Shown here: one piece after another, positions 1 through 27,832 of the stretch
Layout: every line of letters begins with the position of its first letter
How positions within the stretch are numbered: the stretch's first letter is position 1
DNA from: Flavobacterium sp.
GTDB taxonomy: Bacteria; Bacteroidota; Bacteroidia; Flavobacteriales; Flavobacteriaceae
Assembly: GCF_031422135.1 (NCBI RefSeq)
Contig: NZ_JANOQD010000014.1
Span: 12,969-76,968 of the forward strand
Direction of reading: 5' to 3'
DNA: 64,000 bases
Translations under genes and position numbers: made by a program
The notes under the pieces: model-generated
The model's database searches: none
What the model saw: only the letters and a program-made list of their open reading frames with translations
What the model was told of the DNA's origin: nothing

Positions 1-2
1 TT

Positions 3-440
3 GATGTGTTGTATAGATTACTTAAAAACTACAACCAAAAACAAAGTAGGAATTTCTTAAAATATAAGACCAATTTACCACCACTTAAAGAACAAATTAT
101 CAGTTGGATTGAAGAAGAAATAGAATATTTAACCAAGAAAATCAAACTTGAAGCCAATCAATTAACAAATATTTCTAACAACGAAGAAAAGATAAAATTC
201 TTGACTAGTTTGTCTGTCGCACAGTTGAGTTATTTCTTTGGATTGTTGATGGAAGTCGGAATTATAAAGCATAAAAATCAAACCGATGTATTTCGATTTA
301 TTTCCGAAAATTTTAAAACTGGTAATGCTGAAAAAATTTCAGTAGATAGTATAAAAGTCAAATACTACAATGTGGAAAACAATACTAAAAATGCAGTTCG
401 GGAGAAAATTTTAGAATTAATCGAGCTCACGAAGTTCTAA
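3..440 (+). CDS. Hypothetical element protein, 5'-truncated by the window edge (RteC-like C-terminal region possible)
   Basis: Frame is open to the window edge; helical Lys/Glu-rich sequence; sits upstream of the HTH/rep module. Confidence 0.55.
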   Translation, partial: DVLYRLLKNYNQKQSRNFLKYKTNLPPLKEQIISWIEEEIEYLTKKIKLEANQLTNISNNEEKIKFLTSLSVAQLSYFFGLLMEVGIIKHKNQTDVFRFISENFKTGNAEKISVDSIKVKYYNVENNTKNAVREKILELIELTKF

Positions 441-584
441 AACTTCTCGCATCATTCTCCAACCAAAGCCAGCCATTCCGAGCAGTATTTCATCTTCAAT
501 TTGGCGTAATGACGTAAGGTTTGGAATTTTATGCAATTCCATAAAACGTCTTAGTTCGGGACTAATTACAATTTCATTTTTCAT
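417..584 (-). CDS. 55-aa RNA polymerase alpha-CTD-like (helix-hairpin-helix) mini-protein, not in the ORF track
   Basis: Manual translation MKNEIVISPELRRFMELHKIPNLTSLRQIEDEILLGMAGFGWRMMREVLELRELD; aligns without gaps to the alpha-CTD pattern LS.R..N.L....I....DL.....E.LL.I..LG.KS..EI. Confidence 0.5.
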   Translation of the reverse strand: MKNEIVISPELRRFMELHKIPNLTSLRQIEDEILLGMAGFGWRMMREVLELRELD

Positions 585-663
585 ATCAATATTTTTTTAA
601 TGATATACGAAAAAATCCCATTTTGGTTTTGGTACAAACTACAGCGTGGGACATCGATCACCA

Positions 664-775
664 GCATCAGAGGTACGACCAAGCACCTACAGCCACGATA
701 AACCGAGCCCACGCATAGCGAAGGCGAACAGTTTATTCGTAGGCTGATATAAGAAGTTTGGTCGTTTTCTGATGC
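664..775. other. Long multi-bulged stem-loop, candidate structured leader RNA
   Basis: GCATCAGA(664-671)/TCTGATGC(768-775); ACGACCAA(675-682)/TTGGTCGT(758-765); CAGCCACGATAAAC pairs with GTTTATTCGTAGGCTG with two bulges. Confidence 0.5.
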
Positions 776-1007
776 CCTAAATAACTTTCGCAATATATTC
801 TATAGAGTTTAAGCTCTATTTTGTATTCTTAATGCAAATTTAGACATAATCGCATCAAAATTGCAATCAAAAACACATAAATAAAAAAACTTTTAAAAAA
901 GATTGCTTGATTTTATTGGGTTTTGTTGGGGGTTACGGAACCCCTGTAACTGTTTTGGTATTACTTTATTATTTCTCTTTGTCCAAAATATTTAAAACCA
1001 AATTATT

Positions 1008-1301
1008 ATGGCAATTGAAGTTATCACTCGCGAAGACTTAAACGAATTCAGAAGTCTTCTTCTTAATGATTTATTAGATATCATTAAATCTAAACCTCAA
1101 CAGCAAATGCAGTGGCTTAAATCCAATGAAGTCCGAAAGCTGTTAAACATTTCTCCTGGAACTTTACAAAACCTACGAGTAAACGGAACAATCACTTACA
1201 CCAAAATTGGCGGAATTCTATATTATTCCAATAGTGATTTAGAAAAAGTTCTTGAAACTAACAAAGTCGAAGCAACACCCAATTTATTTAATCGTAAATA
1301 A
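1008..1301 (+). CDS. Excisionase-like helix-turn-helix DNA-binding protein (HTH_17/MerR-like)
   Basis: WLKSNEVRKLLNISPGTLQNLRVNGTITYTKIGGILYY motif typical of Bacteroidota element excisionases. Confidence 0.85.
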   Translation: MAIEVITREDLNEFRSLLLNDLLDIIKSKPQQQMQWLKSNEVRKLLNISPGTLQNLRVNGTITYTKIGGILYYSNSDLEKVLETNKVEATPNLFNRK

Positions 1302-1309
1302 CCTCAAAG

Positions 1310-2152
1310 ATGAATTATATAAAACATCTAACAGGATTTTTTGAGAAGGTTGCAATCGACAGAACACTCAATCCAACACACGTCAGTTTGTATATGTCAT
1401 TGTTTCAATTCTGGAATTGCAATCGGTTCAAAAACCCAATAAGCATAAACCGTGATGAGGTAATGCGTATAAGTAAAATCAGCTCCAAAGCAACCTACCA
1501 CAAATGCCTTAAAAACTTACATTCATTAGGATACATCAACTATGAGCCATCTTACAATCCATTCAAAGGAAGCCACGTTTACTTATTCAATTTTTCAGAT
1601 GATTTAAAGCCAGTTCCCAAAAGCGAAAAAACAACAATACCAAAAAATGAACCTCTTTTTGAACTAGTTAATGAACAAGTAGTGAACAAGTCTTATACTA
1701 GTACTGGGACAAGTAGTGGGACTGGTAGTGAACAAGCTCTAGTATCTTATATAAACAATACAAACATAGCAAACATTTCAAACGATTTAAAGATTGTAAA
1801 CTTGGACGAGCAAGCAAAAAATTTTGAAATTGATGATGGTTTTTTTAAAAGCGAGGCTGCTGAAAAAGAAAAAAAGTTGCGCGAAAAAAAGAAAGATGAA
1901 ACACCAACAATCGAAAATGTCAAAGCTTATTTTCTCGAACAGAAATTTCCGGAACTCGAAGCTATTAAGTTTTTCAATTACTTCTCCAGCAACGGTTGGT
2001 TAGTTGGTGGCAAAACCCCAATGGTCGATTGGCAAGCAGCAGCACAAAATTGGATATTAAACGCACCAAAATTCATTTCAAACGAACAACAACCCAACAG
2101 AGCAAAACACCTCAACACCGGAACAGATAAAGATTATTCAGAACCACTTTAA
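1310..2152 (+). CDS. Putative replication initiator (N-terminal winged-helix, phage replisome-organiser-like C-terminus)
   Basis: wHTH-like LYMSLFQFWN...KATYHKCLKNLHSLGYINYEP; C-terminal FFNYFSSNGWLVGG...DWQAAAQNW; followed by a DnaC-like ATPase. Confidence 0.65.
   Translation: MNYIKHLTGFFEKVAIDRTLNPTHVSLYMSLFQFWNCNRFKNPISINRDEVMRISKISSKATYHKCLKNLHSLGYINYEPSYNPFKGSHVYLFNFSDDLKPVPKSEKTTIPKNEPLFELVNEQVVNKSYTSTGTSSGTGSEQALVSYINNTNIANISNDLKIVNLDEQAKNFEIDDGFFKSEAAEKEKKLREKKKDETPTIENVKAYFLEQKFPELEAIKFFNYFSSNGWLVGGKTPMVDWQAAAQNWILNAPKFISNEQQPNRAKHLNTGTDKDYSEPL
1672..1787. repeat. Iteron-like direct repeats plus tandem A-rich 9-mers inside the initiator gene (candidate origin)
   Basis: TGAACAAG at 1672, 1683, 1729; GTAGTGAACAAG at 1679 and 1725; ACAAGTAGTG at 1675 and 1709; four tandem 9-mers TAAACAATA/CAAACATAG/CAAACATTT/CAAACGATT at 1752-1787. 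Confidence 0.5.
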
Positions 2153-2212: not shown

Positions 2213-2244
2213 CTTTACGCTCTTTACGGTTAAATCCTAAAATT

Positions 2245-2868
2245 ATGGAAACAGAAATAAAAACCCACTACAACTACCAGGAAGTAATCCTTTGGCTAGA
2301 AAAAAAAGGTGTCGAATTATATGGAAATCATTTCAAAATCCTTGAAACTGATCATCCCATAATTTACAAACTCATCGCCTATTTCCTAAAAGACGAAGCA
2401 ACTTGTTTTCAATATGGCATCAACCTCAATAAAGGAATTTTACTTTCTGGCCCAGTCGGTTGCGGTAAAACCTCATTATTGAATTTAATGAAATACCTAA
2501 CGCCAACCGAACATAAATTTTTCGTAAAACCGTGCCGAGACATAAGTTTTGAATTCATACAAGATGGCTACGAAATAATCCACAAATATAGCAAAGGCAA
2601 ACTCTATGAATCACAACCCAAAATAATTTGCTTCGATGATTTGGGAACAGAAAACAACCTAAAATACTTCGGAAACGAATGCAACGTAATGGCAGAAATT
2701 ATATTAAGTCGGTATGATATTTTCACTACTAAAAAAATCCTAACGCATATAACAACTAACCTTTCGGCAAGTGAAATTGAAACTCATTACGGAAACCGTG
2801 TACGCAGCAGAATGAGAGAAATGTTGAATTTAATATCATTCGATAGAACTATACTTGACAAACGATGA
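2245..2868 (+). CDS. DnaC/IstB-like P-loop ATPase (putative helicase loader)
   Basis: Walker A GPVGCGKT, Walker B ICFDDLGTE, THITTNLS...YGNRVRSRMREM. Confidence 0.8.
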   Translation: METEIKTHYNYQEVILWLEKKGVELYGNHFKILETDHPIIYKLIAYFLKDEATCFQYGINLNKGILLSGPVGCGKTSLLNLMKYLTPTEHKFFVKPCRDISFEFIQDGYEIIHKYSKGKLYESQPKIICFDDLGTENNLKYFGNECNVMAEIILSRYDIFTTKKILTHITTNLSASEIETHYGNRVRSRMREMLNLISFDRTILDKR

Positions 2869-3488
2869 ACCAAATAACTAACTTCTGGAATTACTTCAAA
2901 CAAAACAACTTTGTTTTTCTATTACTAAACGAAATCCCAAACGACGAACTAAAAATTCATTTTGATAAATTAATTGCATTATTACACAAGTATAACAAAG
3001 ATTTAGATTTAATCATAAAAAACAAAAGCAATGGAGCTGAACTAATCATTACTGCAAGTGGAAATCCCTATCTTTTCAAAGAAGTTGAATTAATATTACA
3101 TTATGCTCCAGTTGTAGAACGTTGGAAAATAATACCTTTTTTACAACCCGAAACAAATCTTTCTAAATACCAACAGGGTATAGATAAACCAATAGAAAAC
3201 TATGGAATTTCTTTAAAAATAAGCGAAATGTATTTCGAACCAATCAAAATTAAAAACAAACCTTTAGAAATAGGAATTAGAGTGTATATCAAAAACCATA
3301 TAGTTTACAAAGAGAACCCAAGATTAAGAGAAACTGTTTACATTCACCTGGAACACTTGCTAGGAGAAAAATGTTTTGCAAATGATATTAGCTTGATTGA
3401 TATTACTCAAATTCCAAGCAATTATAAAGAATTGAGATTTATTGAACTTTACAAATTAGGAGCTTATATTGAAAAAATTATAAATTAG
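2865..3488 (+). CDS. Conserved hypothetical protein
   Basis: 207-aa ORF overlapping the ATPase stop (ATGA); ELIITASGN...AP...W pattern. Confidence 0.7.
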   Translation: MNQITNFWNYFKQNNFVFLLLNEIPNDELKIHFDKLIALLHKYNKDLDLIIKNKSNGAELIITASGNPYLFKEVELILHYAPVVERWKIIPFLQPETNLSKYQQGIDKPIENYGISLKISEMYFEPIKIKNKPLEIGIRVYIKNHIVYKENPRLRETVYIHLEHLLGEKCFANDISLIDITQIPSNYKELRFIELYKLGAYIEKIIN

Positions 3489-3734
3489 CTTTCGTTAAAA
3501 AATATATTTTTTAGCCAAAAATTTATTGTGGTAAACGAGAGTAAATTTTGCTTATATCAATGAAATTAAAGTGATATTTTGATAAATTCACCGTCGTTTG
3601 CAATATATCCTGTTTGCGTTTTACTGTACATTGTGTAGTAAAACGCAAACAGGATATTCTTAATTTGATGAGTTTTGAAAAACGAATAATTACCAAGAGT
3701 AAATTACTTACTTTTATAAAAAATAAATTTATAA

Positions 3735-6602
3735 ATGTTAAAACAAATCCTAAATACATTCGATGTCAATACAGATGCCGTTGCTACCAATAGAGGGTTT
3801 TATTATCAATATTTATCTGTTTTAAAAAAATGGATTCAGAATTTTATTGAAGATAAAAACATTGTAACATATACCGAAGTTGACAATGACATTAAGGAAG
3901 TTGGGCAAGAATTAATTTTCACACAAGTAAAATGTTATTCTTCAAATTTCAGCTTTAATTCGGAAGAAATCAAAAACTCAATATTTAATTTTTGGCTACT
4001 TTATTTGAAATATAATACTTCAAATGAAAATATTAGATTCTGTTTTTCAACAAATACAACAATTGCTCCGAGAGAAAGACTATTAACTAAATGGTCTGCA
4101 AATCCAGAATTAAACAACAATGAACTTTATACATTATGCTACGAAAAAATTAAAGAGATTTTAATTAAAGAAATCAATATTCGAAAAAATAAAAAACTTC
4201 AAAATAAAATTACTGAAATTCAGAAAACTGAAATCAAATCTGCTTGCGAATCTTTTAAAAATTACATTCAAAATGCTGATATAGAAGAATTTGTTAGGAA
4301 TATAATTTGGGAATTTAATCACATTTCTCCCGAAGAGTCAATAATGTCAATAAGAAAAGATATTGATTCATTATTGGCAAATTCAAAATTCAACAACAAA
4401 CCACCAAATTTACTTTTTAGTGTATTATTAAGTGAAATTTATAAAAAATCTCAAAATACGAATAGAGATGATCGGTGTGTAACTAATGAAACAATATCAA
4501 TAATTTTAAAACAGACAGATGATGATTTGAAAAAAATAATCAATAGCAAGTTGACAAAATTATTACGAATTGAAATAGAGTTAATACAAAATGATATTCA
4601 ACAAATCCAAATTAAACAAGGTTTACATAGTGAAGAAATAAAAATATTAAAAACCAGTTTTACTAATTTTAATAATAAAACAATTCCAAAAGAATTAACT
4701 TTTATTCCTGATATAAATTCTACTGAAATACTTGGTTGGGATGATTTTATAGTGAACATCAATAACAGTCTTAAAGCAAAAAAAATAGTTTCAATATTTG
4801 CTGAAGGGGGAATGGGGAAAACTTCATTTGCAAAAAAGTATTTAAAAACATATACTAATTATGACCATATTATTTGGATTAATGTTGAGAATTCTATTAG
4901 TTACGCTTTTTCTTTTGATGAAGTTTTAGAAATAAATTTGGGGGTTGAATTTATTAAAAGTGATGCTGTTCATAAATTTAAATTAATCCTAAATGAAATA
5001 AATAAAATTGAGGGTAATAATTTACTAATTGTTGACATACAAGAGTATGAAATTGATAATACTGAATTAAGATTAATCGCAACTTTAACAAATTGGGAGA
5101 AATTAATAATTACTAGAAGTCATATTAAAAACATCACTTCTTTTAAGTTACCCAGAATAAGTTTTGAATGTGCTAAAGAAATATTTACGTCAAACTGTAG
5201 TAAAGAAGAAATAGAAAATAGTTTACTTAATGTATACTTCGAGTACATCGATTACAATGTATTAGTAATTGAATTGACTGCAAAAACAATTGAAAATAGT
5301 ATTGATTTAACATTAAATGTTTTTTTTAATTTACTCAAAGAGCAAAAATTAGACGATAACGATTTTAATATTGATATTGAAGTTAATGAAGAAAATGAAG
5401 TTATAAGAATATTCAATTTTTTACTTAAAAAGTTTAGTCTTAATAATCTTAATTCAGAAGAAAGAAATTATATTGAATATTTAGCATTACTACCATCAAG
5501 TAATATCTACATTGAAGATATTATTCTAATAAATGGTATTGATTTTTTCGATGAAAACAAAATAACTATTGGAAACATAATAAATTCTCTAGAGAAAAAA
5601 GGTTTAGTTGAATACTCATCTGATCGCAAAAGAATAAATATTCACAGAATCATTAGAGAAATTATTATTTATAATTCAAGAAAAGAATTTAACCCATTCA
5701 TTAATAGTCTTTTTTATATTGTTTGGCTTACAGCTAGAATAAAAGAAGGGCAAAACCAACCTTCAAACTCTATTAGATTTTTAAAATACGCCGAATCAAT
5801 ATTAAATTCTGTAAAAGAAGAATATCGTAAGAGTGTCTATCAACCACTTTTGATGTTAGAAAATGAGCTTTTATATTCATACCGGTTTTTTATTGATATT
5901 GGCATAGGAAATGAACACAATCTTCGATGGAATAATTTAGCATTAAGAGCTCAAAAGTATCTTGATTCAAATAATCCCAATTTAGCGGTAATATATAACA
6001 ATTTGGCATTGTCATTTGCTTACAATGAAGATTTTAAAAATGCAATTATTTATTTCAAAAAAGCTTTAATTATTTTCAAAAAGCAGGAATCAAAGTATAT
6101 TGATTTAGTAATAACAATTTCAAACAACATTTCAAATATTTATTTAAAAAGCAAAGATTTAGTTAATGCGATAAACGTATTCAAAAAGGTTCAAGAAATA
6201 AGAACAAAATACAATTATTTTGACGGACAACAATTAGGGATTGAATATCGAATTCTTGCAGATTCTTATAAAATTGCTGGAGATTATGACAAAGCTATAG
6301 AGTTGCTGTGTGAGGGAATTAAACTGCATAAATCACTTAATATTCTCGAACGAAATGATTTTTATTTAGCTGCATACTACAACCAACTGGCACAACTTTT
6401 TCTATGCAAAAATGATATTATACAAGCTATAACCAACCAAGAAATGGCAATAAAAACATTAGAAGACATTAATCTTAATAACAGTGATTATCTATTGCAA
6501 ATGTATTTGATTGTTTTAAGTCTATATCAGCACGAAGGAATTAAAAATAAAGAGCAAGAAGTAATTATCAAGATTAATTCTTTTAAAAATATTCAATCTT
6601 AA
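3735..6602 (+). CDS. Cap4-like PD-(D/E)xK nuclease + NB-ARC/STAND NTPase + TPR protein (Avs/NLR-like antiphage candidate)
   Basis: N-terminal DAVATNRGFYYQ...EVDNDI...TQVK; P-loop AEGGMGKT; Walker B LLIVD; sensor LIITRS; C-terminal TPRs (LAVIYNNLALSF...AIIYFKKAL). Confidence 0.75.
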   Translation: MLKQILNTFDVNTDAVATNRGFYYQYLSVLKKWIQNFIEDKNIVTYTEVDNDIKEVGQELIFTQVKCYSSNFSFNSEEIKNSIFNFWLLYLKYNTSNENIRFCFSTNTTIAPRERLLTKWSANPELNNNELYTLCYEKIKEILIKEINIRKNKKLQNKITEIQKTEIKSACESFKNYIQNADIEEFVRNIIWEFNHISPEESIMSIRKDIDSLLANSKFNNKPPNLLFSVLLSEIYKKSQNTNRDDRCVTNETISIILKQTDDDLKKIINSKLTKLLRIEIELIQNDIQQIQIKQGLHSEEIKILKTSFTNFNNKTIPKELTFIPDINSTEILGWDDFIVNINNSLKAKKIVSIFAEGGMGKTSFAKKYLKTYTNYDHIIWINVENSISYAFSFDEVLEINLGVEFIKSDAVHKFKLILNEINKIEGNNLLIVDIQEYEIDNTELRLIATLTNWEKLIITRSHIKNITSFKLPRISFECAKEIFTSNCSKEEIENSLLNVYFEYIDYNVLVIELTAKTIENSIDLTLNVFFNLLKEQKLDDNDFNIDIEVNEENEVIRIFNFLLKKFSLNNLNSEERNYIEYLALLPSSNIYIEDIILINGIDFFDENKITIGNIINSLEKKGLVEYSSDRKRINIHRIIREIIIYNSRKEFNPFINSLFYIVWLTARIKEGQNQPSNSIRFLKYAESILNSVKEEYRKSVYQPLLMLENELLYSYRFFIDIGIGNEHNLRWNNLALRAQKYLDSNNPNLAVIYNNLALSFAYNEDFKNAIIYFKKALIIFKKQESKYIDLVITISNNISNIYLKSKDLVNAINVFKKVQEIRTKYNYFDGQQLGIEYRILADSYKIAGDYDKAIELLCEGIKLHKSLNILERNDFYLAAYYNQLAQLFLCKNDIIQAITNQEMAIKTLEDINLNNSDYLLQMYLIVLSLYQHEGIKNKEQEVIIKINSFKNIQS

Positions 6603-6726
6603 AAATTTAAATTAATCAAAAATAGATTCAATAAAATTAGTTACAGTTTAAGTTGAAAATCAATCAGAAAAATAAAAATAATCCAAAGGCATAGCTGTCT
6701 TGGCTAAAGCATAATAATTTACATTA

Positions 6727-9966: not shown

Positions 9967-10080
9967 TTGACACTTCTATTGGTCTAATCAAAAAGCATTA
10001 TTTTAGTATAATCTAAACACTGTCTATCATAAATATTGAAACATTTTTCAAAAGTTCATTATTTTATAAAAAAATAACAC

Positions 10081-10132
10081 TACTTTTGATTACCTTTCAA
10101 CGCAAGATAAACCCCAATTTTTAGGGTTTATC
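10081..10132 (+). promoter_or_regulatory. Promoter -7 element and inverted-repeat operator upstream of abiEi
   Basis: TACTTTTG (Bacteroidota TAnnTTTG) at 10081-10088; perfect 9-bp inverted repeat GATAAACCC(10106-10114)/GGGTTTATC(10124-10132) 15 bp before the ATG. Confidence 0.6.
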
Positions 10133-10147
10133 CTTAAACGATTAGTA

Positions 10148-11805: not shown

Positions 11806-11813
11806 TTTTTAAT

Positions 11814-13961: not shown

Positions 13962-13962
13962 A

Positions 13963-15123: not shown

Positions 15124-15125
15124 TT

Positions 15126-17126: not shown

Positions 17127-17129
17127 ACA

Positions 17130-18470: not shown

Positions 18471-19087
18471 GTAGTTTCTTGTACAGTGATAATTCAGAGG
18501 ATTTATTTGCTTCAATTGATTATTTATTAAAAGATGGTGTACACTTTCAAAAAGAAGGAAAACAAATAAATCAATATAACTTTATTTCACAAAATGAAGA
18601 AAGTCTTAAACTGTATTATAACACCTTTTTCAAAGTTGATTTAGTTAAAGGAGGCGAAGACAATGCAAGCTATTATTATTTAGATTTTATAAATAATGAT
18701 CGAGGAAATATCTCTGATAAACACAGATATATGCTCAAAAGTGAGTATGTAATTATTGGATTTCTAATTTATAAAATTATGTTTATTGACCGAGAATTTG
18801 ATTTGAATTCTGTTCAAAAATTAAAAGAAAAAATCCGGCTTGAATGTGAAGATTACAAACAAGGTATTTATACATTAATTGCTAAATCAAAGAATACAAC
18901 TCCTGGTAATTACAATGATGATATAATAGATAAAACAATTCAATCGGCTCTTGAAGAATTTAAAAAAATTGGTTGGATAACATTAGATAAAGACGAGTTT
19001 CATACATTACCTGCATTCGACAGATTGCTAAAAGTATATGAAGAGTACATTATAAATATAGAGGAAACACTAAACGAACTGAAATGA
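18440..19087 (+). CDS. jetB: Wadjet JetB/MksE-like KITE subunit
   Basis: 215 aa; C-terminal wHTH (ALEEFKKIGWI...LPAFDRL); lies directly before the SMC-like gene. Confidence 0.72.
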   Translation: MENENNKISLSSFLYSDNSEDLFASIDYLLKDGVHFQKEGKQINQYNFISQNEESLKLYYNTFFKVDLVKGGEDNASYYYLDFINNDRGNISDKHRYMLKSEYVIIGFLIYKIMFIDREFDLNSVQKLKEKIRLECEDYKQGIYTLIAKSKNTTPGNYNDDIIDKTIQSALEEFKKIGWITLDKDEFHTLPAFDRLLKVYEEYIINIEETLNELK

Positions 19088-22000
19088 AAGACTATCCACT
19101 AATTAAAAGACTATCAACTTTAGGAATAGTACACCATCAGGGATTTGATTATGATTTTAATCCATTCAGAACTGATTTTGTTGGCGAAGGCGGTGCTGGT
19201 AAAAGTATGATTTCTGATATTTTACAATTAATTTGTGTTGGTACTTCGGCTTTTCATTCTCCTACAAAAGGTACAAGTACTAGAGAACCTAAAACTATGG
19301 TTTTAAGAACTGATGGTAATGGAACCGATATGGGTTATGCTTTTATAAATGTTGAGGTAGAGAAAAATAAATTTATAGTTATTGGTATTTATTTAGAAAG
19401 TGCTGGTACTTCATATATGTTTATTATTCAAGAGGGTAATAATTTTGATGACGACACTCAATTGATGCCTTTTGAAACTGTTTTAGGGTATTCCGATTTT
19501 CTCAAAAACAATCAAATATTACCAATTCAAAATTTGAAGGAACACATCAGTAATACTTTACAACTAACTTGTGAATCTTGGCATAAGACTTCAAATTATC
19601 ATAAAATTCTTTTCAAAAATGAAATATTGCCTATTGATTTGTCAATCAGTAATAAAACGTTAGACAATTATGCCAAAATTATTCAAGCATTTTCTAGAGA
19701 ATCTTTGGATATGAATAAGAGTGAAAAATTACAAAGTTTTTTATTTGGTGAGGAAAAAGAAAAGGAATTACTTGAAAAATTTAATCAAACCGTTAAAGAA
19801 CTGAATGGTGACAACAAAGAATTTGATAAAAACTTAAACGAAATAGAATTACTCACCGATAAGCAAAACGCGTTAAGTGAATTGTTGAAATTGAGAATTG
19901 AAAAAGATAAAAACGAGAAGATTTTCTTGTTAGCATCTTTTAACAATTATTCAAAAGAAGTTACTGATTCAGAAAATGAAATAAGAGAGAAAATTAATCT
20001 TTATGAAAATAGTTCCAAAATACTCATCCAATTAAAAACAAATGTCCAAGAAAAAATAATTTCAACAAATGAAGAAATTAAAATAATAGATCCAAAATGG
20101 GAAACTGCATTTAAAGAAAAAAATAAATGGGAAGAATGTGAAAACAAATTAAAAAAGTTTTTCTCTTGGTTACAGGATTTTAATTGTTCTGAAAAAGAAA
20201 TTTTAAAAGAAAAATATAATAAGCACCATCAAAATAAACTTCAAATAACACAATTAAGAGAATTGACTGAAAAGTTAAAATCAAAAAACATTTTGACTTT
20301 TTTTACCAATGAAAATTTAAAGGGTAAAAATGCACTTGTACAAGCTAATTCAAAAACAGAAGTTTACAAAAAAGAGCTAGAAATTAAAAACAAATTAAAA
20401 GCTTTAAATAATATTGAAGATAAAAAATCATTAGCACATTGGGCTTTAAATCAAACTAAAAAATTAGATTTATTCCAGGAAAGTATAATTCATAAATACC
20501 ACAATGAAAATATAAAAGTAGATGCTCCATCAGATGTTTTATTAAAATATATTCCAGAACCAAATCAATTAATAGAAAATCTTAAAATATCAAATAAAAA
20601 TGACAAAGGTTTTTGGATTGATCTAAATGGTTTAATGGAACACGTAACTTTAATTAAATCACCAATTTTTGACAAGGAAGATAGAGAAGAAATTAAGGAA
20701 TATTTTCAGAAACAAACTTGTACGATAGAAGAAGACATTTCAAATTTAGAGAGAAAATTATCAAACATTGAATTGATTATAGAAGTTTTAGAACAATTAG
20801 AAAATCCTGATGAATATGTATTTGCTTTTAATTCAAATATAGGACTAGATGAACAACTTGAAAATCACGAAATGTATGATGTTTCAAATATCATTTTTGA
20901 TGACTATTTTGATGCTTTTTCTAGAGAAAAAGAAATCAATGAACAGCTTACAAATGCAAAAACAAATTTCAAAAAATTAGAAGACGAAAAGCGAAAATTG
21001 GACAATCTACGCATTAATTTAGAGCGTGAATTAGAATCATTTTTAACACCAATAATTATTGATGAAATTGATGATTACAAAAGTAAATATAATTTTGCAT
21101 CAACTAAAAATCTTGATTTAGAGAGCTTAAATAAAGAATTAAGCGATGCTGAAGATTATTACATAGAATTGAAAAAAGCATATAATACTCAAATAAGTAA
21201 TAACAATCAAACAGCTTCTCTAAAGGAAATAGAATTAAAAATTTTAAAAATTACACATAAAAAAAATGAGATTTATAGTCAAAATCCTAATCTATTTACA
21301 GAAGAAATAGTAATGGATATTTATGATGATAATGAAATTAATGAATTAGAAAAAAAATCTATAGATGCTAATAATGATTATATTTCTAACTACAATTTTG
21401 TAGTCTATACTTTTCTTAAACAGAAGATTAATCATTATAAAGACACTGGCGATTTCAGTCCTTTATGCAGAGAAATTTTACCTAAAGAAATATTTGATGA
21501 AAAAGATTTATTAGAAGAAGATATAATTGAAAACATTTCCAATTACTTACGCAATATAAATATTAAAAATAGAAAGCTAAATAGCCGAAAGCTTCAAAAA
21601 TTAAGTGAGATTATAGACGATGTTTCAAATGAAGTAAGTAGTCAATTAATGGATATAAGAATAATAAGTAATTTTTTGAATTCAGAAGAAAAAAAAATAA
21701 CTGGCGGTCACAAGGTCGATTTAGATGTAATATACGATAATGTTTTCAAAAAAGAATGGATGAATAATTTCACTGATGAGATTAATAAAGATATTCAATA
21801 CGGTATGGATGAATCATTATTTGAAACTCTTAAAACATTTTCCACAGAATTAGAAAGTTTTCCAACGTTGGAAGAAAAATTAAAAGAAGCATTTTATCGA
21901 ACTGGTGGAACAAGAGCAAACAAACTAGAAGTTAGGGACTTACTGAATCCAAAATCATATTATGGGTTGAAGTTTTCAATTAAATCAGCACAAGGGAACA

Positions 22001-22323
22001 AAACTGCTGGTAGCACAAGTCAAACATATTCAGCAATAGCACTTTTATGTATGGCAAAGTTATCTTTAATCGATAAAACTTCAAAATCCAAAATAAGAAA
22101 AGGAATTCGTTATATGGCTATTGATGAGGCAGAAGGTCTTGGAAGTAATTTTGATATGCTATATAATATTGCAAAAGCAAATGATTACCAAATTTTATCT
22201 TTATCGATAAATCCAAATAAAATTGATGCAGAAAATCAAAATATTTATTTGTTGCACAATAGTTTAGAAGATGAAAATATAAACTACACTCCTGTGCCAA
22301 TTTTTGGATCATCAAACAATTAA
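19084..22323 (+). CDS. jetC: Wadjet JetC/MksB SMC-like ATPase
   Basis: N-terminal Walker A GEGGAGKS, long coiled coil, signature-like GSTSQ, Walker B MAIDEA. Confidence 0.8.
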   Translation: MKDYPLIKRLSTLGIVHHQGFDYDFNPFRTDFVGEGGAGKSMISDILQLICVGTSAFHSPTKGTSTREPKTMVLRTDGNGTDMGYAFINVEVEKNKFIVIGIYLESAGTSYMFIIQEGNNFDDDTQLMPFETVLGYSDFLKNNQILPIQNLKEHISNTLQLTCESWHKTSNYHKILFKNEILPIDLSISNKTLDNYAKIIQAFSRESLDMNKSEKLQSFLFGEEKEKELLEKFNQTVKELNGDNKEFDKNLNEIELLTDKQNALSELLKLRIEKDKNEKIFLLASFNNYSKEVTDSENEIREKINLYENSSKILIQLKTNVQEKIISTNEEIKIIDPKWETAFKEKNKWEECENKLKKFFSWLQDFNCSEKEILKEKYNKHHQNKLQITQLRELTEKLKSKNILTFFTNENLKGKNALVQANSKTEVYKKELEIKNKLKALNNIEDKKSLAHWALNQTKKLDLFQESIIHKYHNENIKVDAPSDVLLKYIPEPNQLIENLKISNKNDKGFWIDLNGLMEHVTLIKSPIFDKEDREEIKEYFQKQTCTIEEDISNLERKLSNIELIIEVLEQLENPDEYVFAFNSNIGLDEQLENHEMYDVSNIIFDDYFDAFSREKEINEQLTNAKTNFKKLEDEKRKLDNLRINLERELESFLTPIIIDEIDDYKSKYNFASTKNLDLESLNKELSDAEDYYIELKKAYNTQISNNNQTASLKEIELKILKITHKKNEIYSQNPNLFTEEIVMDIYDDNEINELEKKSIDANNDYISNYNFVVYTFLKQKINHYKDTGDFSPLCREILPKEIFDEKDLLEEDIIENISNYLRNINIKNRKLNSRKLQKLSEIIDDVSNEVSSQLMDIRIISNFLNSEEKKITGGHKVDLDVIYDNVFKKEWMNNFTDEINKDIQYGMDESLFETLKTFSTELESFPTLEEKLKEAFYRTGGTRANKLEVRDLLNPKSYYGLKFSIKSAQGNKTAGSTSQTYSAIALLCMAKLSLIDKTSKSKIRKGIRYMAIDEAEGLGSNFDMLYNIAKANDYQILSLSINPNKIDAENQNIYLLHNSLEDENINYTPVPIFGSSNN

Positions 22324-22327
22324 AAGT

Positions 22328-23278
22328 ATGAAAAAAATTGAATGGAAACATCTAAAAGGATTGCATCAGCTTTATAAATCAAAACAAACAAAGTTAAAAA
22401 TAACTAACAATGATTTTATTAATCAGGTCATTTTAAAACAAAAGAAACTAATAAAATTTAAGGTTGGAAATCATTCTATTATCGAAGCATCATCAAGATT
22501 TAAGGAGTATTACGAGCAGGAATTTTTAGAAACCTATGAATACTACAATAATTTCTTTGAGAAGTCGGGAATAGAAAACGATGCTAAAAAATCTTTTGAT
22601 GATGAAGATTTAAAAGCATTAATGTTTGTTTTTTATAACAAAGAGGAATTAAAAAAAAATGTAACAACAGAGAAAAAATTATCTGCTTTAATTTATAAAA
22701 ATCAAAATTCTAAATACTTATCTAATAAATTAAGTGTTAAAAATGCAGTTTTAAGAATATTAGAACTTGATGAATTTCCAGAAAAAGACCCCAAAAATAA
22801 TCAATGGAGATTTGTAGTTGATTGCCTTAATCCAAAAGTTATTGTGCTTTGTGAGAATCTTGATTGTCTAAAAGTTCCGTTAGAATATAAAAATAATAAT
22901 ATCGAATTATGGTATGTTGGTGGTAATAATACCACACCATTAGAAGACATTTCTCAAGATAAATTAAAACTTCCAATATATTATTTTTGTGATTGGGATT
23001 ATAACGGATTACTGATATATTCAAATGTCAAACAAATATTTAGATCCAAAGGAATTGAAGTCAAAATAATTCTACCACAAACACAAGAAATCGCAATCGA
23101 AGTTGGTGTCAAACATCATAAAAGTAAATGGAATGATAATGAATTCTCAAATTTGAATAAGAATGATTTTTCATTACAAGAAATCGAATTTATCAATCAA
23201 TTAATTTCGGAAAATAAATGGATTGAAGAAGAATCTTTAGATTTAATCAAACTACTGAAAAACGATAATATCATTTAA
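22328..23278 (+). CDS. jetD: Wadjet JetD/MksG Toprim nuclease
   Basis: Toprim motifs VLCENL, YVGGNN and YFCDWDYNG (DxD); follows the SMC gene; ATG at 22328 preferred over the overlapping 22304 start. Confidence 0.8.
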   Translation: MKKIEWKHLKGLHQLYKSKQTKLKITNNDFINQVILKQKKLIKFKVGNHSIIEASSRFKEYYEQEFLETYEYYNNFFEKSGIENDAKKSFDDEDLKALMFVFYNKEELKKNVTTEKKLSALIYKNQNSKYLSNKLSVKNAVLRILELDEFPEKDPKNNQWRFVVDCLNPKVIVLCENLDCLKVPLEYKNNNIELWYVGGNNTTPLEDISQDKLKLPIYYFCDWDYNGLLIYSNVKQIFRSKGIEVKIILPQTQEIAIEVGVKHHKSKWNDNEFSNLNKNDFSLQEIEFINQLISENKWIEEESLDLIKLLKNDNII

Positions 23279-23453
23279 TTACCATTATCTCATTCATCTG
23301 CACAAAATCTTCGTTTAGTCCAAGTATTCCTAAACTCAAATCTTTGTTTGCTTCATTTCACTAATTACGTTTTCAATAGCAAGAATATCTTTTTCGTTCG
23401 GTGGTAAAAAGAAAGTTTTACATTTCATAAGGCACTCCTTTGCCAACGCTCCA

Positions 23454-24347
23454 AAAAAAATTACTGGCACAGTTTTTAGAAAAAACACGTACGCTTCGCA
23501 ACTTGCGCCAGTAATTTTTTTCCCCAAGCTGTGTTACATAATTGAGTATTATAGTTCATTACAAAGCGTTTATATTGTTTTTTTTGGTTTTTGTAACGAA
23601 GCTATAATATCATTTATGTAAAACAGCCGCCACACCCAACGCGCTTGCCAGTGGCTCTAGGACAGCTTTTTTAATTGCTTCCTCGCACCAGCCGGCAATA
23701 AAAAAAGCTGTCCTTCGCCACTGTCTTTAAGAACCTTCGCTATTTCATCGGAAACTTTACAGTTGTAATTACTTTCAAGAACGTTCACGGTAACTGTTTT
23801 TAGCAACTTTGTGTTTAAATCGGTAAGTATTTGCATTGCTTTTGTAAGTGTTGTAAATCGCTTATCAACTCTATTTCTAACATTAACGACATAGGAATAA
23901 GCAATTTACAACACCCACAAAACCAAGAGTAGCCAGCAAGAGTATCATTTTTTTATTTGCCATAAAATAAGAAGTCATTGCTTCAGCGGAAAAGTTGATG
24001 CCATACCGTTACTAATAATAAGCATTGCAAGCTTCAAGCATTATCTTTCTTTTAAGTCTATGGCATCAACTTTTCCACAAAAGCAATCAGAAACATCCCA
24101 GTCAGCAAATAAAAAATGATACACTTGCACGCGCTACTGCACTGTCGCACTAGGTATTATAATGCATTGTTTTTTGAAGATGCTTTCCATTTTCAGAACA
24201 ACATTCCAATTAAATTGAAACTTCACATTTCATAAGACGATTAGGCATCCTCAAAAATCAAATCCAAGAAAGAGTAGCAAATTCTTTGGCCGGATGAAAA
24301 GCATTTTTATTTTTTGATTTGGTTTTTTTATCCATCCAAAGAATTTG
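23454..24347. repeat. Array of six long imperfect inverted repeats
   Basis: Hairpins at 23454-23521 (15-bp perfect stem), 23528-23627, 23649-23723, 23840-23922, 23936-24128 (18-bp perfect inner stem) and 24278-24347 (12-bp perfect stem). Confidence 0.85.
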
Positions 24348-24771
24348 ATACCCTTTCCGAAGACGACCATCTTCCAAATCAATTCTCATTACTTCAGATT
24401 AAATCCGATTAAACAAGAACATTCCGATTGGATATTCAAAACAAAAAATAAAAAAAAAGAGAGCAAAGATAAGTTCCAGGTATTCAGAAAAAAAAGTTCA
24501 AGCCCTAAGGGTTTTAAAAAAAATCTCCACCCTTAACGGTTCGCATCAACATTCAATTCCGATTTCACGCTCATACTTCCGATGATGTATCGGGTAGTAT
24601 TTTTTTTAAAAAACTTTTTTATCTGAAACCTTCCGCTTGAACAGACGGCTTTCTTTTTTTCTTTTTTTCTTTTGAAAAATTTTATAGGTCGAGCGTAGCG
24701 AGGCACACCTACATTTCAAGAGAAAATCCGCGAAAAATTGAAAATCTAATCAATTTTTAAAGCCGAAAGTT

Positions 24772-25194
24772 ATGACCAATTTTATCATCAAAACTCACCG
24801 AGTTGGAACGATTTATTCAAAACCGCATTTATTCCTACTTAACAAAGGGATGAACAGCGGAAAGCCACAAAAAGAGCCATTTACTAACAGTTTTGTTATC
24901 ATTTTTCAAAACGAGGAGGACTGCGAAAGCCTTTTTTTCATTGCTTATAGTTTATGGCAAACAAAATTTTGGCACCAACATTTAGTTGGTTCGGTAATCC
25001 CATTTTTACGCCTTCCAGATTTCAAAAAACAATTCAATCCGCAAGCCAGTTTAATGATGGTGGAACACGAGCAGCACCAAAAAAATGTTGCAGCTCTCAA
25101 ACTTCTGGAAAAAAAAGAAAAACAGTACAAAGAGGATATGATGCTTATAAATGACATCCGTAGAGCCATTTTATATAGGTATTGCAGAAAATAA
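24772..25194 (+). CDS. DUF6943-like protein (weak resemblance to a type I R-M specificity subunit fragment)
   Basis: NKGMNSGKP...LVGSVIPFLRL followed by an amphipathic helix; family label from recall. Confidence 0.6.
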   Translation: MTNFIIKTHRVGTIYSKPHLFLLNKGMNSGKPQKEPFTNSFVIIFQNEEDCESLFFIAYSLWQTKFWHQHLVGSVIPFLRLPDFKKQFNPQASLMMVEHEQHQKNVAALKLLEKKEKQYKEDMMLINDIRRAILYRYCRK

Positions 25195-25484
25195 TCCAAA
25201 TTGTAAACTCAAATTCACTTAAATGAAGCTATTTATTTTGTACCAAACCGACAATTGGAAATCCAAAGCATCAACAGTATGTTTTGGCGTTTTCGACACT
25301 AGAGCCAAAGCTCTTGATAGCGCAAAATGGCAATAATTGTACACATATAATTCTGAAGTAGTGGTTTTAGAGGTTACTCTAAATCTATTTGAAGAAGTTT
25401 AATTTTAGACCATAAAAAAACCCATTCCTCACGGTTTGGGCTTCATTATTGTTTAATCCAAAGGTCACCACAACTAGAATTAAA

Positions 25485-25667
25485 CTATTTTTTGCGCTTT
25501 CTAATAAAAAATTTGAGTAGTAAAGATATTAAAAAACTGACTATCGCACCAAGAGTGGCAAGAATTATAGTTTTTAAAACATCTTCCGAATGTAAATTCG
25601 GTAAAACACTCAAAAATGTACCGCCAGCGGTACCAATTGCAGTTGAATTACTATGTTGCATCGTCAT
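25485..25667 (-). CDS. Small membrane protein, holin-like
   Basis: 60 aa; hydrophobic helix followed by a basic C-terminus KFFIRKRKK; overlaps the upstream ORF by 4 bp. Confidence 0.6.
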   Translation of the reverse strand: MTMQHSNSTAIGTAGGTFLSVLPNLHSEDVLKTIILATLGAIVSFLISLLLKFFIRKRKK

Positions 25668-25897
25668 CCTGAACTTTTGTGAAGGATCTCATCCTCTTTT
25701 GTGGTCAATTGGCTAACTGCCGACACTACACCGCCAACAACCGCCAAATAACCTCCGATAGAAGTTATCACAACTGGCAACGCTATAGGCGCTGCTAGAA
25801 TAGTTCCTCCAACGGCAGCCAACACCAAACCAATATTTCGAAGCACTTTAAAAAATTTTGGAGTTGGAGCTTTCGCTCTATTTATTATTTTTTTCAT
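25664..25897 (-). CDS. Small two-helix membrane protein, holin-like
   Basis: RAKAPTPKFFK followed by a long Gly/Ala-rich hydrophobic segment. Confidence 0.65.
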   Translation of the reverse strand: MKKIINRAKAPTPKFFKVLRNIGLVLAAVGGTILAAPIALPVVITSIGGYLAVVGGVVSAVSQLTTKEDEILHKSSG

Positions 25898-25906
25898 AAT
25901 CTTATT

Positions 25907-26302
25907 TTAAGATTGAACAATTAAAACAACACTTTCATTTTTGTCTAAAATTGGATTGACTAAATTTTTCAATTTAGAAAATGCTTTTCGAGACATAAGA
26001 CCTAAACCAGGTCCAGAAAGTTTTGTTACTGGAGCAATACAACCATTCAATTCTTGCAAAGCATTATTGGCAGGATGAAACAAAATCAAGCTTCTGTTTT
26101 TTACATCTACTATTTCCAAATGCCATTGAAATTTCTTGCTGTAGCGCTTTTTAATAAAATATTTCCCTTCCGGAATGCAGGAAACTTTCGTTTCGTTTAT
26201 CTTCCACGGCAATTCAATGGTTTTACAAATCAATTTGCCTTCGCATTCGAGTATTCCGTTAGTTCCATCAGGGAAATAAGTTCTCGATAGTATTAAAACC
26301 AT
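25907..26302 (-). CDS. DUF5675-family protein (phage-associated, putative cell-wall-acting enzyme)
   Basis: TNG.L...TIELPW...SCIPEGKY...RSLILFHPAN....LNGCIAP pattern. Confidence 0.75.
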   Translation of the reverse strand: MVLILSRTYFPDGTNGILECEGKLICKTIELPWKINETKVSCIPEGKYFIKKRYSKKFQWHLEIVDVKNRSLILFHPANNALQELNGCIAPVTKLSGPGLGLMSRKAFSKLKNLVNPILDKNESVVLIVQS

Positions 26303-26303
26303 C

Positions 26304-27059
26304 TTACAATCCGCTCACTTGCACCAATGCTAATGGATTAAATGCACCATTTTTCAATGGATACATTTGACCATTTACTTCTTGATAAAACTCAACTCCA
26401 AGAGCCAAAAACAAAGGCTTTGTACTAGCTGGAGTTACAGCATTTGTTTGGCTAATCACAGCCGTAGCGGTTGTGTCCCAAGGTAAAATTGCCGTTTCTG
26501 AATGCGCTTCAACAAATGTTTCCGCTTCAAAATCTACTTCTGCACCAGCTGAAATGATTTTAAAATGCGTTGTTCCAGATGGTGCAGCAATCATATTAGC
26601 CGGTATAAATGAAGCCAAATCAACAGTGATGTTTCCTGTAACACGGTCAATTACTCCTACAAAAGGAGCAAATAAACTGGTTCCCAGTTTCCCACGAATA
26701 TTGAATTCAAAGCCTGCTAAAAGTTCAGCTTCGCCATCAATAACATTTCGCAAACCTCTAACGCTGGTTAAATCAGCTTGGATAACTTGGACCATTCTTT
26801 GGGTTAAACGGCTTACCATTCTGCCGTCGGCAGAATTCAAGAGCAGAGCTCTTAATGCCGTTCTCAAAATCTTTCCAGCCTTACCCGCTCGACCAAACTC
26901 CGAACCATTTTCACGCGTTCTTTGAAACGCAGGATCACTTTTGATTCTGCTGGCATCAATGCCACCTTTTTCTCTCGCCAAATGACCGTCTTGGGTTTTG
27001 TAAAAAGTAATATCTCCGATAGTACCTTTCAATTTAATTATGCCTTTCTGTCTTGCCAT
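26304..27059 (-). CDS. Conserved Bacteroidota element protein of unknown function
   Basis: 251 aa; basic N-terminus MARQKGIIKLKGTIGDITFYK, helical middle, beta-rich C-terminal half; first gene of a four-gene minus-strand operon. Confidence 0.75.
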   Translation of the reverse strand: MARQKGIIKLKGTIGDITFYKTQDGHLAREKGGIDASRIKSDPAFQRTRENGSEFGRAGKAGKILRTALRALLLNSADGRMVSRLTQRMVQVIQADLTSVRGLRNVIDGEAELLAGFEFNIRGKLGTSLFAPFVGVIDRVTGNITVDLASFIPANMIAAPSGTTHFKIISAGAEVDFEAETFVEAHSETAILPWDTTATAVISQTNAVTPASTKPLFLALGVEFYQEVNGQMYPLKNGAFNPLALVQVSGL

Positions 27060-27371
27060 AATTTCTAAAATTTTTAATTAATAATCGTTTAAAATTTCCT
27101 CAATCATATTCGCGTTGCAACGTCTTTCAATTGATTTCGAGAACAAATTTTAGCTAATTAAACAGAATAAAAAAGCGAGGACAGTTCCATATGTCGCAAA
27201 GTGACATAAATGGCTTAAATCGACATAAATGCCTGCCAAAAAGCACATAAAAACAACCATAAATTGCGAAAAAAATTTATATTTCAAAAAAACTTACTTT
27301 TGTATAATCTTAAACTTCACTTGTCAGTAGGTTTAAGCTAATCAAAGCCTAGTCAAAGGCATAGATAGTGT

Positions 27372-27575
27372 ATGAAATTTGAAAAACAGAGGGTGTGCAT
27401 ATATCCGAAAGACATACAGCGCATAACAGGCAAGAGTTATCGCCAAAGTACCAGATTAATGCAAAAAGTGAAAACTGACCTCAACAAGCTCGAAAATGAG
27501 TTTTTAACTATTGAAGAGTTTTGTTTGTATGCAGGATTAAAATATGAACAAGTAGCTCATTTGATTTTTGGTTAA
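27372..27575 (+). CDS. Small HTH-type DNA-binding protein
   Basis: IYPKDIQRITGKSYRQSTRLM HTH-like motif; divergent from the minus-strand operon. Confidence 0.7.
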   Translation: MKFEKQRVCIYPKDIQRITGKSYRQSTRLMQKVKTDLNKLENEFLTIEEFCLYAGLKYEQVAHLIFG

Positions 27576-27811
27576 AATGTGGATAAAATCCCAACTCCAT
27601 TTTAAACCATCGTAGATAAACACATCGTTAAATAACTAGTTCATTTTTTAGTATTCTTTACACTTTAAGTTATGTTGTATCAATTTAATTGTGTACTTTT
27701 ATGGTTCACAAGTTAATGGAAGTCCAAACGATATAAAAAGGGGGTAAATTCGGTTACCCAATTTAAAATATAATTGCAAAATACTAAAATATAGCGCATT
27801 AGGGATTAAGT

Positions 27812-27832
27812 TTCAATCCCTCATCGCCCACA
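27812..27832 (+). other. Putative attR: tRNA 3'-end remnant (tRNA-Val-like)
   Basis: TTCAATCCCTC-ATCGCCC-A-CA resembles a T-loop/T-stem, the 3' acceptor strand complementary to 5'-GGGCGAT and the discriminator base; no 5' half of a tRNA upstream. Confidence 0.55.

Follow-up and report, generated by a model that had tools for sequence, protein, structure and literature searches.

In Riemerella anatipestifer, a member of the Flavobacteriales, a '10K' island carries its integrase beside a tRNA gene, uses as its attachment (att) site the 3' end of the tRNA together with the downstream terminator (53 bp) and encodes mostly hypothetical proteins, including a small DNA-binding protein; excision to circles by its own integrase was shown experimentally and induction gave no plaques (PMC6764341). 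We analysed a 64,000-nucleotide stretch of Flavobacterium sp., called the window throughout (C14:12969-76968, where C14 is contig NZ_JANOQD010000014.1; positions without a contig name are those of the window), which holds an element of comparable layout. The window would carry the right-hand 28 kb of an integrative plasmid-like (episomal) element of ~47 kb in the 3' end of a tRNA-Val gene, and the best reading, to which we assign a probability of roughly 0.62, is that it belongs to a family of non-conjugative integrative episomes. The element is probably able to excise and to replicate in a plasmid-like manner. Compared by gene list, the Riemerella island differs from it in its size of 10 kb and 12 open reading frames (ORFs), in its Fic and AntA/AntB genes and in having no annotated rep/DnaC pair, DUF5675 gene or defence slot.

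Several other described classes share parts of this design. NBU1/NBU2 integrative mobilizable elements and CTnDOT-type integrative and conjugative elements (ICEs) have tyrosine integrases of the same Arm-DNA-bind_5/SAM_5/catalytic architecture, tRNA 3'-end sites and small proteins of the HTH_17 type (helix-turn-helix, HTH), whereas the present family has no relaxase/Mob, recognised oriT or tra genes and instead a phage-type theta-replication module and a putative lysis cassette. The Pseudomonas I55 family, VPI-1-type islands (PMC12595487) and tycheposons combine a tyrosine integrase, a target in a tRNA or transfer-messenger RNA (tmRNA) gene, direct repeats and defence cargo, also without recognised autonomous transfer genes; they occur in another phylum and have an unrelated backbone, to which the present family adds the replication module, the presumed lysis cassette, a structured non-coding region and a plasmid state. 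The pSAM2-type actinomycete ICEs (AICEs; PMC2440964) likewise integrate into tRNA genes, form replicating circles and have a modular int-xis-rep organisation, but they carry an FtsK-like Tra protein for conjugation of double-stranded DNA and a rolling-circle Rep, neither of which was found in the present family. Phage satellites (SaPI/PICI, the phage-inducible chromosomal islands, as well as cfPICI, P4 and PLE) resemble it in site-specific integration, integrase, excision regulator, own replication module, accessory or defence cargo and the lack of a full virion module. Compared with these satellites the present family has no packaging or capsid-remodelling genes, is much larger and variable in size (25-54 kb) and has no known helper, and its hallmark genes, missing from phages, are found on ParAB/Rep plasmids as well. 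No published description of the family was found in the papers searched, and its hallmark genes are all annotated as 'hypothetical'.

Ends and Extent of the Element

The right end of the element is marked by attR at 27812-27910 (plus strand), where BLAST and alignment identified the displaced 3' portion of tRNA-Val(tac) and a terminator hairpin. An exact 30-nt core, CCCTCATCGCCCACAAGTATTACTACAATT, at 27818-27847 is also present on a second contig of the assembly, C109, and the similarity between the two sites extends over ~100 nt at 86-88% identity (86% over 101 nt against C109:6033-5934, BLAST E 1.5e-21). ARAGORN finds no intact tRNA in the window, and for tRNA-Val(tac) the genome has just two genes, intact and in tandem on C109. 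After them come a terminator, two CGGTTACCC motifs that are inverted relative to each other and a gene for a tyrosine integrase of 413 aa with Arm-DNA-bind_5, Phage_int_SAM_5 and Phage_integrase domains (Pfam), giving a site-specific integrase together with a tRNA 3'-end att core that is found at both ends. The same CGGTTACCC word, a candidate arm-type integrase-binding motif by its match to C109, lies at 27751-27759 (plus strand) just inside the element; such arm motifs vary between elements with different integrases, being GAGACCCTAG in the related copy on contig C22 and GTGTCCA in a Marivirga plasmid described below.

Where is the left end of the element? A first-pass annotation of the window, whose listed features could all be located at the positions it gave, had confined the element to 1-27832 and had suggested that integrase and attL be sought further left. 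The confinement does not hold, as the gene for a 496-aa protein that is cut at position 1 belongs to the backbone and the element runs leftwards off the window. The 12,968 bases of C14 preceding the window contain no integrase, tRNA, tra or virion gene (16 left-flank ORFs scanned, Pfam), and integrase and attL are most probably those on C109. A complete conjugation or virion module in the missing left part, which the same annotation had named as evidence against its view, is absent from the left 13 kb of the contig. This flank has accessory-looking genes for a DJ-1/PfpI protein, an HMA/MauE protein, two cNMP-binding (cyclic nucleotide) regulators, a fatty-acid hydroxylase, a Cass2/GyrI-like protein, an S41 peptidase, a metallo-beta-lactamase fold and an HD domain.

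The assignment of C109 follows from counting. The genome contains five integrases of the family, on C109, C48, C90, C22 and C28, and five replication modules, on C14, C104 (the apparent continuation of C48), C90, C22 and C28. C109 is the only integrase contig without a replication module and C14 the only replication-module contig without an integrase. Because these are the sole unpaired integrase and replication module, and because the two contigs share the att core and the CGGTTACCC motif, C109 most probably pairs with C14. The order along the element would then be two tRNA-Val genes (attL), integrase, cargo slot 1 of at least 17 kb, the 496-aa gene, replication module, cargo slot 2, right arm and attR, which most probably amounts to ~47 kb with two cargo slots.

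Positions 423-722 of C14 match C109:1-300 over 300 bp at 97% identity at the start of a gene for a DJ-1/PfpI-like 389-aa protein, where C109 ends, which points to either strain heterogeneity in the left part of the element or a further paralogous copy there; the ends of the two contigs share no exact k-mer overlap. In the empty-site comparison, the host flank genes (Mur ligase and FGE-sulfatase) were found to be syntenic in relatives, but no tRNA-Val lies within 1.5 kb of the syntenic flank in ten relatives, nor within ~14 kb in three of these, and a 371-aa flank gene is found only in this genome among the relatives compared. The definition of attB from relatives was abandoned, since at ~65% amino-acid identity they are too distant.

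Replication Module and Left Arm

The centre of the backbone is a putative replication module. Phage homology and repeats point to a 280-aa protein (1310-2152, plus strand) as the replication-initiator candidate, in which a linker joins a winged-helix-like domain at the N-terminus to a phage-type domain at the C-terminus. A homologue of the N-terminal domain is encoded in Polaribacter phage Freya directly before a gene annotated 'DNA replication protein', and the C-terminal domain matches PHROGs 15768 and 28809 and occurs in Vibrio and gut phages. The part of the gene that encodes the linker contains iteron-like repeats of the TGAACAAG type at 1663-1736. In all five paralogues of this genome, of which the other four are diverged from the initiator in the window, the variable linker holds two to four TGAACAAG-like words at a conserved position. 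Such conservation fits a location of the replication origin inside the initiator gene, and we infer that the origin lies there. The second component, a 207-aa DnaC/IstB-like AAA+ ATPase (2245-2868, plus strand), is a candidate helicase loader that matches PF00004 and PHROGs 50 and 3277 (DnaC-like loader), while its matches to NCBIfam PRK08116, PRK06835 and DnaI fall below their cut-offs. As judged from these homologies, putative initiator and loader form a pair of the phage type.

Upstream of this pair the window contains the 3' end of the 496-aa accessory backbone gene (1-440, plus strand; full gene C14:11918-13408), the position of which is conserved in sister copies, with homologues on C48 (91%) and C22 (42%) and fragments on the Marivirga plasmid. 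Its product has no match in Pfam, PHROG or NCBIfam, and its C-terminus, read by eye only, may be HTH-like. A conserved small ORF of 55 aa (417-584, minus strand), present on C48 (93%) and C22 (48%), has no family match either. The excisionase-like HTH_17 protein of 97 aa (HTH97; 1008-1301, plus strand; PF12728, E 1.2e-9, and PHROG excisionase families), a gene type found in six copies in this genome, is a candidate recombination directionality factor or regulator. Downstream of the loader, a conserved backbone protein of 207 aa (2865-3488, plus strand) with homologues on C90, C22 and C28 is the last before cargo slot 2 and marks the closed end of this slot in the related loci L004, L015 and L028.

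Right-Arm Genes

The coding part of the right arm comprises a tight minus-strand operon for the 251-aa hallmark protein, a DUF5675 protein and two small membrane proteins. The hallmark protein (26304-27059, minus strand), recognised by its conservation in the family, has a confident AlphaFold2 (AF2) model (mean predicted local distance difference test, pLDDT, 92.5) in which N-terminal beta-hairpins and a helical bundle precede a C-terminal beta-sandwich. No fold in PDB or BFVD was matched by Foldseek at an E-value under 1e-3, the weak matches being confined to C2/Ig-like beta-sandwiches, and a phmmer search of PDB was also negative. Relatives were not detected in 50,697 phage genomes, nor were any found in the 2.9 million contigs of IMG/VR in a single-protein scan. 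A role as capsid was rejected, as the confident model matches no capsid or virion fold. Divergent from this gene is that for a 67-aa DNA-binding-like protein (HTH67; 27372-27575, plus strand) without Pfam match, which is always paired with the 251-aa gene, in nearly all loci as well as on Marivirga and Fulvitalea plasmids.

The DUF5675 protein (131 aa; 25907-26302, minus strand; PF18925, E 4e-32) has a His...Gly-Cys motif, FHPANNALQELNGC, and relatives in 118 phage records. DUF5675 was grouped structurally with C82 L,D-peptidase-type lysins as a lysin candidate (bioRxiv 10.64898/2026.04.11.717860), and the protein encoded here is a candidate cell-wall hydrolase of the L,D-peptidase type with an endolysin-like role. 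The two membrane proteins, of 60 aa (25485-25667, minus strand) and 77 aa (25664-25897, minus strand), are holin-like by their hydrophobic stretches (KD19 hydrophobicity maxima 2.5 and 2.2) and by the basic tail at the C-terminus of one of them, and both are conserved in nearly all related loci. Together with the DUF5675 protein they may constitute a phage-type lysis cassette. Furthermore, a DUF6943 protein (140 aa; 24772-25194, plus strand; PF22105, E 3.7e-56) is encoded by a universal backbone gene that follows the 251-aa operon in 67 of 80 loci. Its AF2 model (pLDDT 72) gave no fold match, and with a model of such mediocre quality the idea of an HsdS-like or anti-restriction protein found no support. 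The right arm, which also includes the hairpins described below, would serve release from the donor cell and/or establishment in the new cell.

Circular Form and Plasmid Relatives

Does the backbone also exist outside a chromosome? A tblastn search of PLSDB with the initiator candidate and the 251-aa protein retrieved plasmid p1 of Marivirga sp. BKB1-2, a circular replicon of 25,320 bp typed 'non-mobilizable'. Its genes follow each other in the order p60, p77, DUF5675 and p251 (minus strand), HTH67, an intergenic region, integrase, fragments resembling the 496-aa gene, HTH97, rep and the ATPase gene, which spans the origin of the record, and then ~18 kb of helicase, endonuclease and tetratricopeptide-repeat (TPR) cargo. 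This permuted order matches the product of recombination between attL and attR of an integrated element. Moreover, the intergenic region between HTH67 and integrase has a short core flanked to either side by GTGTCCA repeats, with a terminator hairpin after the core, a layout expected of an attP site. The backbone thus occurs both integrated and as a circular replicon, as is expected of an episome, for the family rather than for the copy in the window.

A homologue of the 251-aa protein is encoded on eight plasmids, namely Marivirga p1 and seven plasmids of Fulvitalea axinellae (44-325 kb). On pFA12, the one Fulvitalea plasmid examined, the pair of 251-aa and HTH67 genes lies between ParAB and a Rep gene, and no homologue of the integrase or of DUF5675 was detected. 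This pairing without integrase and DUF5675 indicates that the 251-aa/HTH pair is a module of the plasmid world to which the lysis genes are a separable addition.

Copies in this Genome and Across Flavobacterium

The same backbone occurs at least three further times in this genome, where the family is represented by at least five copies. The copy on C22 is complete, spans 54 kb and has the same gene order, beginning with tRNA-Ser(tga) and integrase and ending in an attR, with a 17-nt core, AATCCCTCTTTCTCCGC, repeated at both ends. C90 holds a further copy with a degenerate attR core, and C48/C104 and C28 hold parts from integrase to replication module without a right arm in the assembly. Contamination or strain mixture was considered as the source of these copies and rejected: duplicated DNA of at least 1 kb amounts to only ~70 kb per direction at 69-92% identity, and the two tmRNA genes of the genome (C28:36154-36548 and C86:126932-127326) are 77% identical and have different flanks, which argues for paralogous elements. 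The C28 copy lies beside one of these tmRNA genes, its integrase (C28:34694-35905) directly adjoining it, and the element either targets the tmRNA gene or brought it along. Elsewhere in the genome, at C99:15453-16033, six atypical tRNA genes (Asn, Arg, Asp, His, Pro and Phe) lie within 600 bp, a cluster that looks phage-like or mobile-element-like.

The expectation of the first-pass annotation that the backbone genes co-occur in other genomes was borne out many times. When grouped at 90% identity, relatives of the 251-aa protein fall into at least 6,771 clusters, and at 50% into at least 3,343, all of them named 'hypothetical'. A scan of one genome per species yielded more than 500 relatives, and the best 80, which are almost all from Flavobacterium with 82-100% identity, were fetched as loci. 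In an even sample of Flavobacterium species genomes the gene was present in 79 of 151, a single genome having as many as six copies. Across the 80 loci the order HTH67, 251-aa gene, DUF5675, two membrane proteins and DUF6943 is nearly invariant, and a replication module is reached within 3-7 kb in four of them. In more than ten loci HTH67 is followed by integrase, HTH97 and rep within ~1.7 kb; these are tandem arrays joined at the tRNA remnant.

Cargo Slots

Between the backbone parts two slots accept interchangeable accessory genes, one from integrase to replication module and the other from replication module to hairpin region. In the window, slot 2 extends over 19.5 kb (3735-23278, plus strand) with a GC content of 26% compared with 33-36% in the backbone. 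According to Pfam and PADLOC it holds five defence systems, all of its genes being of defence type. These are an NTPase with STAND (signal transduction ATPase with numerous domains) and TPR regions (3735-6602), a second STAND-like NTPase (6727-9966), AbiEi/AbiEii (10148-11805; AbiE shares 90% identity with its counterpart on C22), an ATPase-HNH-ATPase system (11814-17126) that matches PADLOC PDC-M62 and more weakly Septu, and a Wadjet-like four-gene set (17130-23278), all on the plus strand. The last comprises a 446-aa gene without family assignment, MksE, a MukB N-terminal domain and JetD_C; the Pfam matches to MksE, MukB_N and JetD_C are weak, and the PADLOC Jet models do not match.

Collecting the related loci and tabulating their cargo, as had been proposed, revealed conserved flanks around a hypervariable interior: when slot 2 ORFs of 150 aa or more from 67 loci were clustered at 50% identity, 179 distinct clusters resulted. 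Commonest in a Pfam tally, which covers the 25 commonest families per batch and may miss rare ones, are parts of type I restriction-modification systems, SWI2/SNF2 and ResIII helicases, HerA, Schlafen/AlbA_2, Pycsar effector, TOTE primase, AbiEii, HipA, patatin and IrrE-type peptidase. Elsewhere the slot holds in addition resistance-nodulation-division (RND) and P-type metal efflux systems, copper oxidase and regulators. Of the other copies in this genome, Gabija and TIR proteins are encoded in that on C90, and SIR2-HerA, AbiE and a large metal-efflux block in that on C22. Slot 2 is a true hotspot, as the first-pass annotation had supposed, and rich in defence genes, but these are mixed with metal efflux and other genes.

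Two features lie at the boundaries of the slot. On the left, a near-perfect palindrome at 3605-3657 has 26-nt arms that are 92% complementary and a 1-nt loop, and sits inside a 78-aa minus-strand ORF without family match. On the right, a segment of ~90 nt (23282-23370) that immediately follows the final cargo gene shows conservation in ~28 loci and is present twice in some (L012 and L024), flanking extra cargo; it may be the recombination boundary of slot 2.

Hairpin-Rich Non-Coding Region

Between the cargo and the DUF6943 gene lies a conserved non-coding region (23282-24771, assigned to the minus strand) that stands out by inverted repeats, conservation and folding. Its core is an array of six long imperfect inverted repeats with arms of 18-33 nt at ~23440-24370. 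The z-score of the minimum free energy against shuffled sequences is -13.9 for the minus strand and -9.0 for the plus strand, and the nucleotide sequence is conserved in 57 of the 80 related loci. In two hairpins that were tested on homologues, 14 of 27 and 10 of 30 pairs show compensatory changes, with G-U pairs on the minus strand. A search of 23200-28300 against Rfam returned only sub-threshold matches at chance level. Since compensatory changes, z-scores far below those of shuffled sequences and conservation coincide, the region appears to be a functional structured element, either RNA or single-stranded DNA, that is read from the minus strand.

A different arrangement of such sequences is seen in Flavobacterium psychraquaticum LB-N7 (contig 14; L056:4700-12888), where, beside DUF6943, five unrelated genes alternate with five spacers of ~620 bp that are 92-100% identical and contain a homologue of the window hairpin at 24255-24370. 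The genes encode secreted/WG-repeat, leucine-rich-repeat (LRR), membrane-glycosyltransferase-like and other proteins, and the layout resembles an integron-type gene-cassette array.

Mode of Transfer and Alternative Explanations

How could such an element be mobilised? In the proposed mechanism, the C109 integrase, a Bacteroidota-type tyrosine recombinase with arm-binding, SAM-like and catalytic domains, would recombine an attP composed of tRNA 3' end, terminator and flanking arm-type repeats with the tRNA gene, so that attL would be formed by the intact tRNA and attR by its displaced 3' end (27818-27847). Excision would probably require one of the two small HTH proteins. The excised circle would then be replicated by the phage-type pair, the 280-aa initiator acting on the iteron-like repeats within its own gene and the DnaC-like ATPase loading the host helicase.

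For the step from cell to cell no dedicated machinery was recognised. The first-pass view, which excluded both a typical ICE and a full prophage, was upheld: in 26 window ORFs, which comprise every long non-nested ORF and leave out short nested ones, no relaxase, type IV secretion system (T4SS), tra, terminase, portal, capsid or tail family was matched in Pfam, PHROG or NCBIfam. Transfer or virion genes were likewise absent from the examined sister copies, in which selected ORFs were searched with Pfam and the rest read by eye from the N-terminal sequence. The whole genome contains no PF03432 relaxase, no PF12508 TraM and no large terminase (TerL) of PF03237 or PF03354, with control genomes positive in each search. 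Neither the tra genes nor the combination of relaxase and coupling protein that define an ICE were found, and TrwB-like matches elsewhere in the family are HerA/DUF87 defence ATPases. The own relaxase or Mob protein of an integrative mobilizable element is missing as well, with no such family in element or genome, and terminase, portal, major capsid and tail of a prophage are found neither in the window nor in its flank. The element is neither self-conjugative nor self-packaging, which is compatible with transient helpers.

One such helper could be a conjugative element. A relaxase-less integrative mobilizable element might use the hairpin region as oriT and/or single-strand promoters and obtain relaxase and T4SS from a co-resident conjugative element, and relaxase-less islands have been proposed to hitch on conjugative elements in this way (bioRxiv 10.64898/2026.01.13.699239). 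Compensatory hairpins that are more stable on one strand, as for structures acting in single-stranded nucleic acid, speak in its favour, as do TraM-type genes in 13 of 35 element-bearing isolates and, if the contig numbering matches, within the coordinates of one locus. In this locus (L073; Flavobacterium zhoui ZS1P70, contig 12, ~129.4 kb) a TraM gene lies upstream of the divergent integrase preceding the family element, a placement that assumes contig C12 of genome G062 to be the same contig as in the L073 record, and which may represent a conjugative element in tandem at the same site. However, 22 of the 35 isolates lack TraM and the present genome lacks TraM and a PF03432 relaxase, which argues against an obligatory reliance on a resident conjugative element. 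In addition, MOB-suite typed all eight plasmids with the 251-aa gene as non-mobilizable, the G-U pattern fits RNA at least equally well as single-stranded DNA, and no nic-site consensus was identified. We regard this explanation as unlikely.

Likewise unlikely is a capsid-less 'lytic episome' that excises, replicates like a plasmid, lyses a fraction of its hosts by its own holin-endolysin cassette and spreads as free or vesicle DNA or by opportunistic packaging. In such a scheme the 251-aa protein, its HTH partner, DUF6943 and the ~1.4-kb minus-strand hairpin chain would form a new release or establishment apparatus, a ribonucleoprotein or single-stranded DNA, shared with plasmids of Bacteroidota, and the hairpin units would be the boundaries at which cargo cassettes are captured, as hinted at by L056. 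If true, this would be a kind of mobile element not yet described.

The label 'phage-satellite-like', which the first-pass annotation had favoured, fared less well, and we consider a satellite improbable. A satellite would be induced by a helper phage, replicate, be packaged into helper capsids and leave by its own or the helper's lysis, its defence cargo being directed against competing phages. Its own integrase and replication module (280-aa initiator and DnaC-like ATPase), the excisionase-like HTH protein, the phage-derived DUF5675/holin-like cassette, the absence of virion and tra genes, a defence cargo typical of satellites and tandem arrays at tRNA sites, which are common, would all agree with this; furthermore, jumbo phages can transduce large defence-carrying islands without transfer genes (PMC12595487). 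On the other hand, no small terminase (TerS), portal or other packaging gene and no gene for capsid hijacking or head-size redirection (Cpm/Sid-like, cfPICI capsid) was recognised, and the 251-aa protein is no recognisable capsid in spite of its confident model and is absent from the phage sets. The sizes exceed the ~5-20 kb of satellites, with at least 28 kb in view, ~47 kb inferred, 54 kb for C22 and 25 kb for Marivirga p1, and this range of 25-54 kb together with a genome that has at least five copies and no terminase of PF03237 or PF03354 leaves capsid-limited packaging unsupported. Given the circular 25-kb family member and the 251-aa/HTH pair beside ParAB and Rep, a plasmid-like integrative episome is on balance the likelier reading.

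Very unlikely is a decaying remnant, that is a defective prophage or dead island with simply chromosomal defence genes and a relic backbone: although two of the five copies (C28 and C48/C104) have no right arm in the assembly, the attR core of C90 is degenerate and some related loci have no replication module nearby, the intact backbone genes of the window, the 83-100% identity of the 251-aa protein across dozens of species with several copies per genome, the different tRNA and tmRNA sites of related copies, the circular form and the extreme cargo turnover argue for current or recent activity.

Several points weigh against an integrative episome as described here. The C109-C14 join is a probable one, with the 300 bp at 97% identity as the sole overlap, and nothing on C109 corresponds to C14:1-422. 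Both the origin and the replication function are deduced from homology and repeats only. Several backbone genes of Marivirga p1 are frameshifted, by sequencing error or decay, and the record could be an assembly of excised copies instead of a stable plasmid. Finally, an anti-plasmid Wadjet-like system carried by an element of a family that forms circles of 25-54 kb constitutes a tension.

Significance

The pairs of integrase and att site and the replication module are possible genetic tools for Flavobacterium. Moreover, with the presumed lysis cassette, the 251-aa protein and the hairpins, the family offers testable parts for the question of how big islands that lack conjugation or virion genes pass between cells. 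The backbone is present in about half of the Flavobacterium species sampled, often in several copies, and relatives extend to plasmids of the Cytophagales. In Flavobacterium, a genus important in freshwater ecology and fish disease, the family appears to be a main vehicle for the swapping of anti-phage systems and metal resistance.

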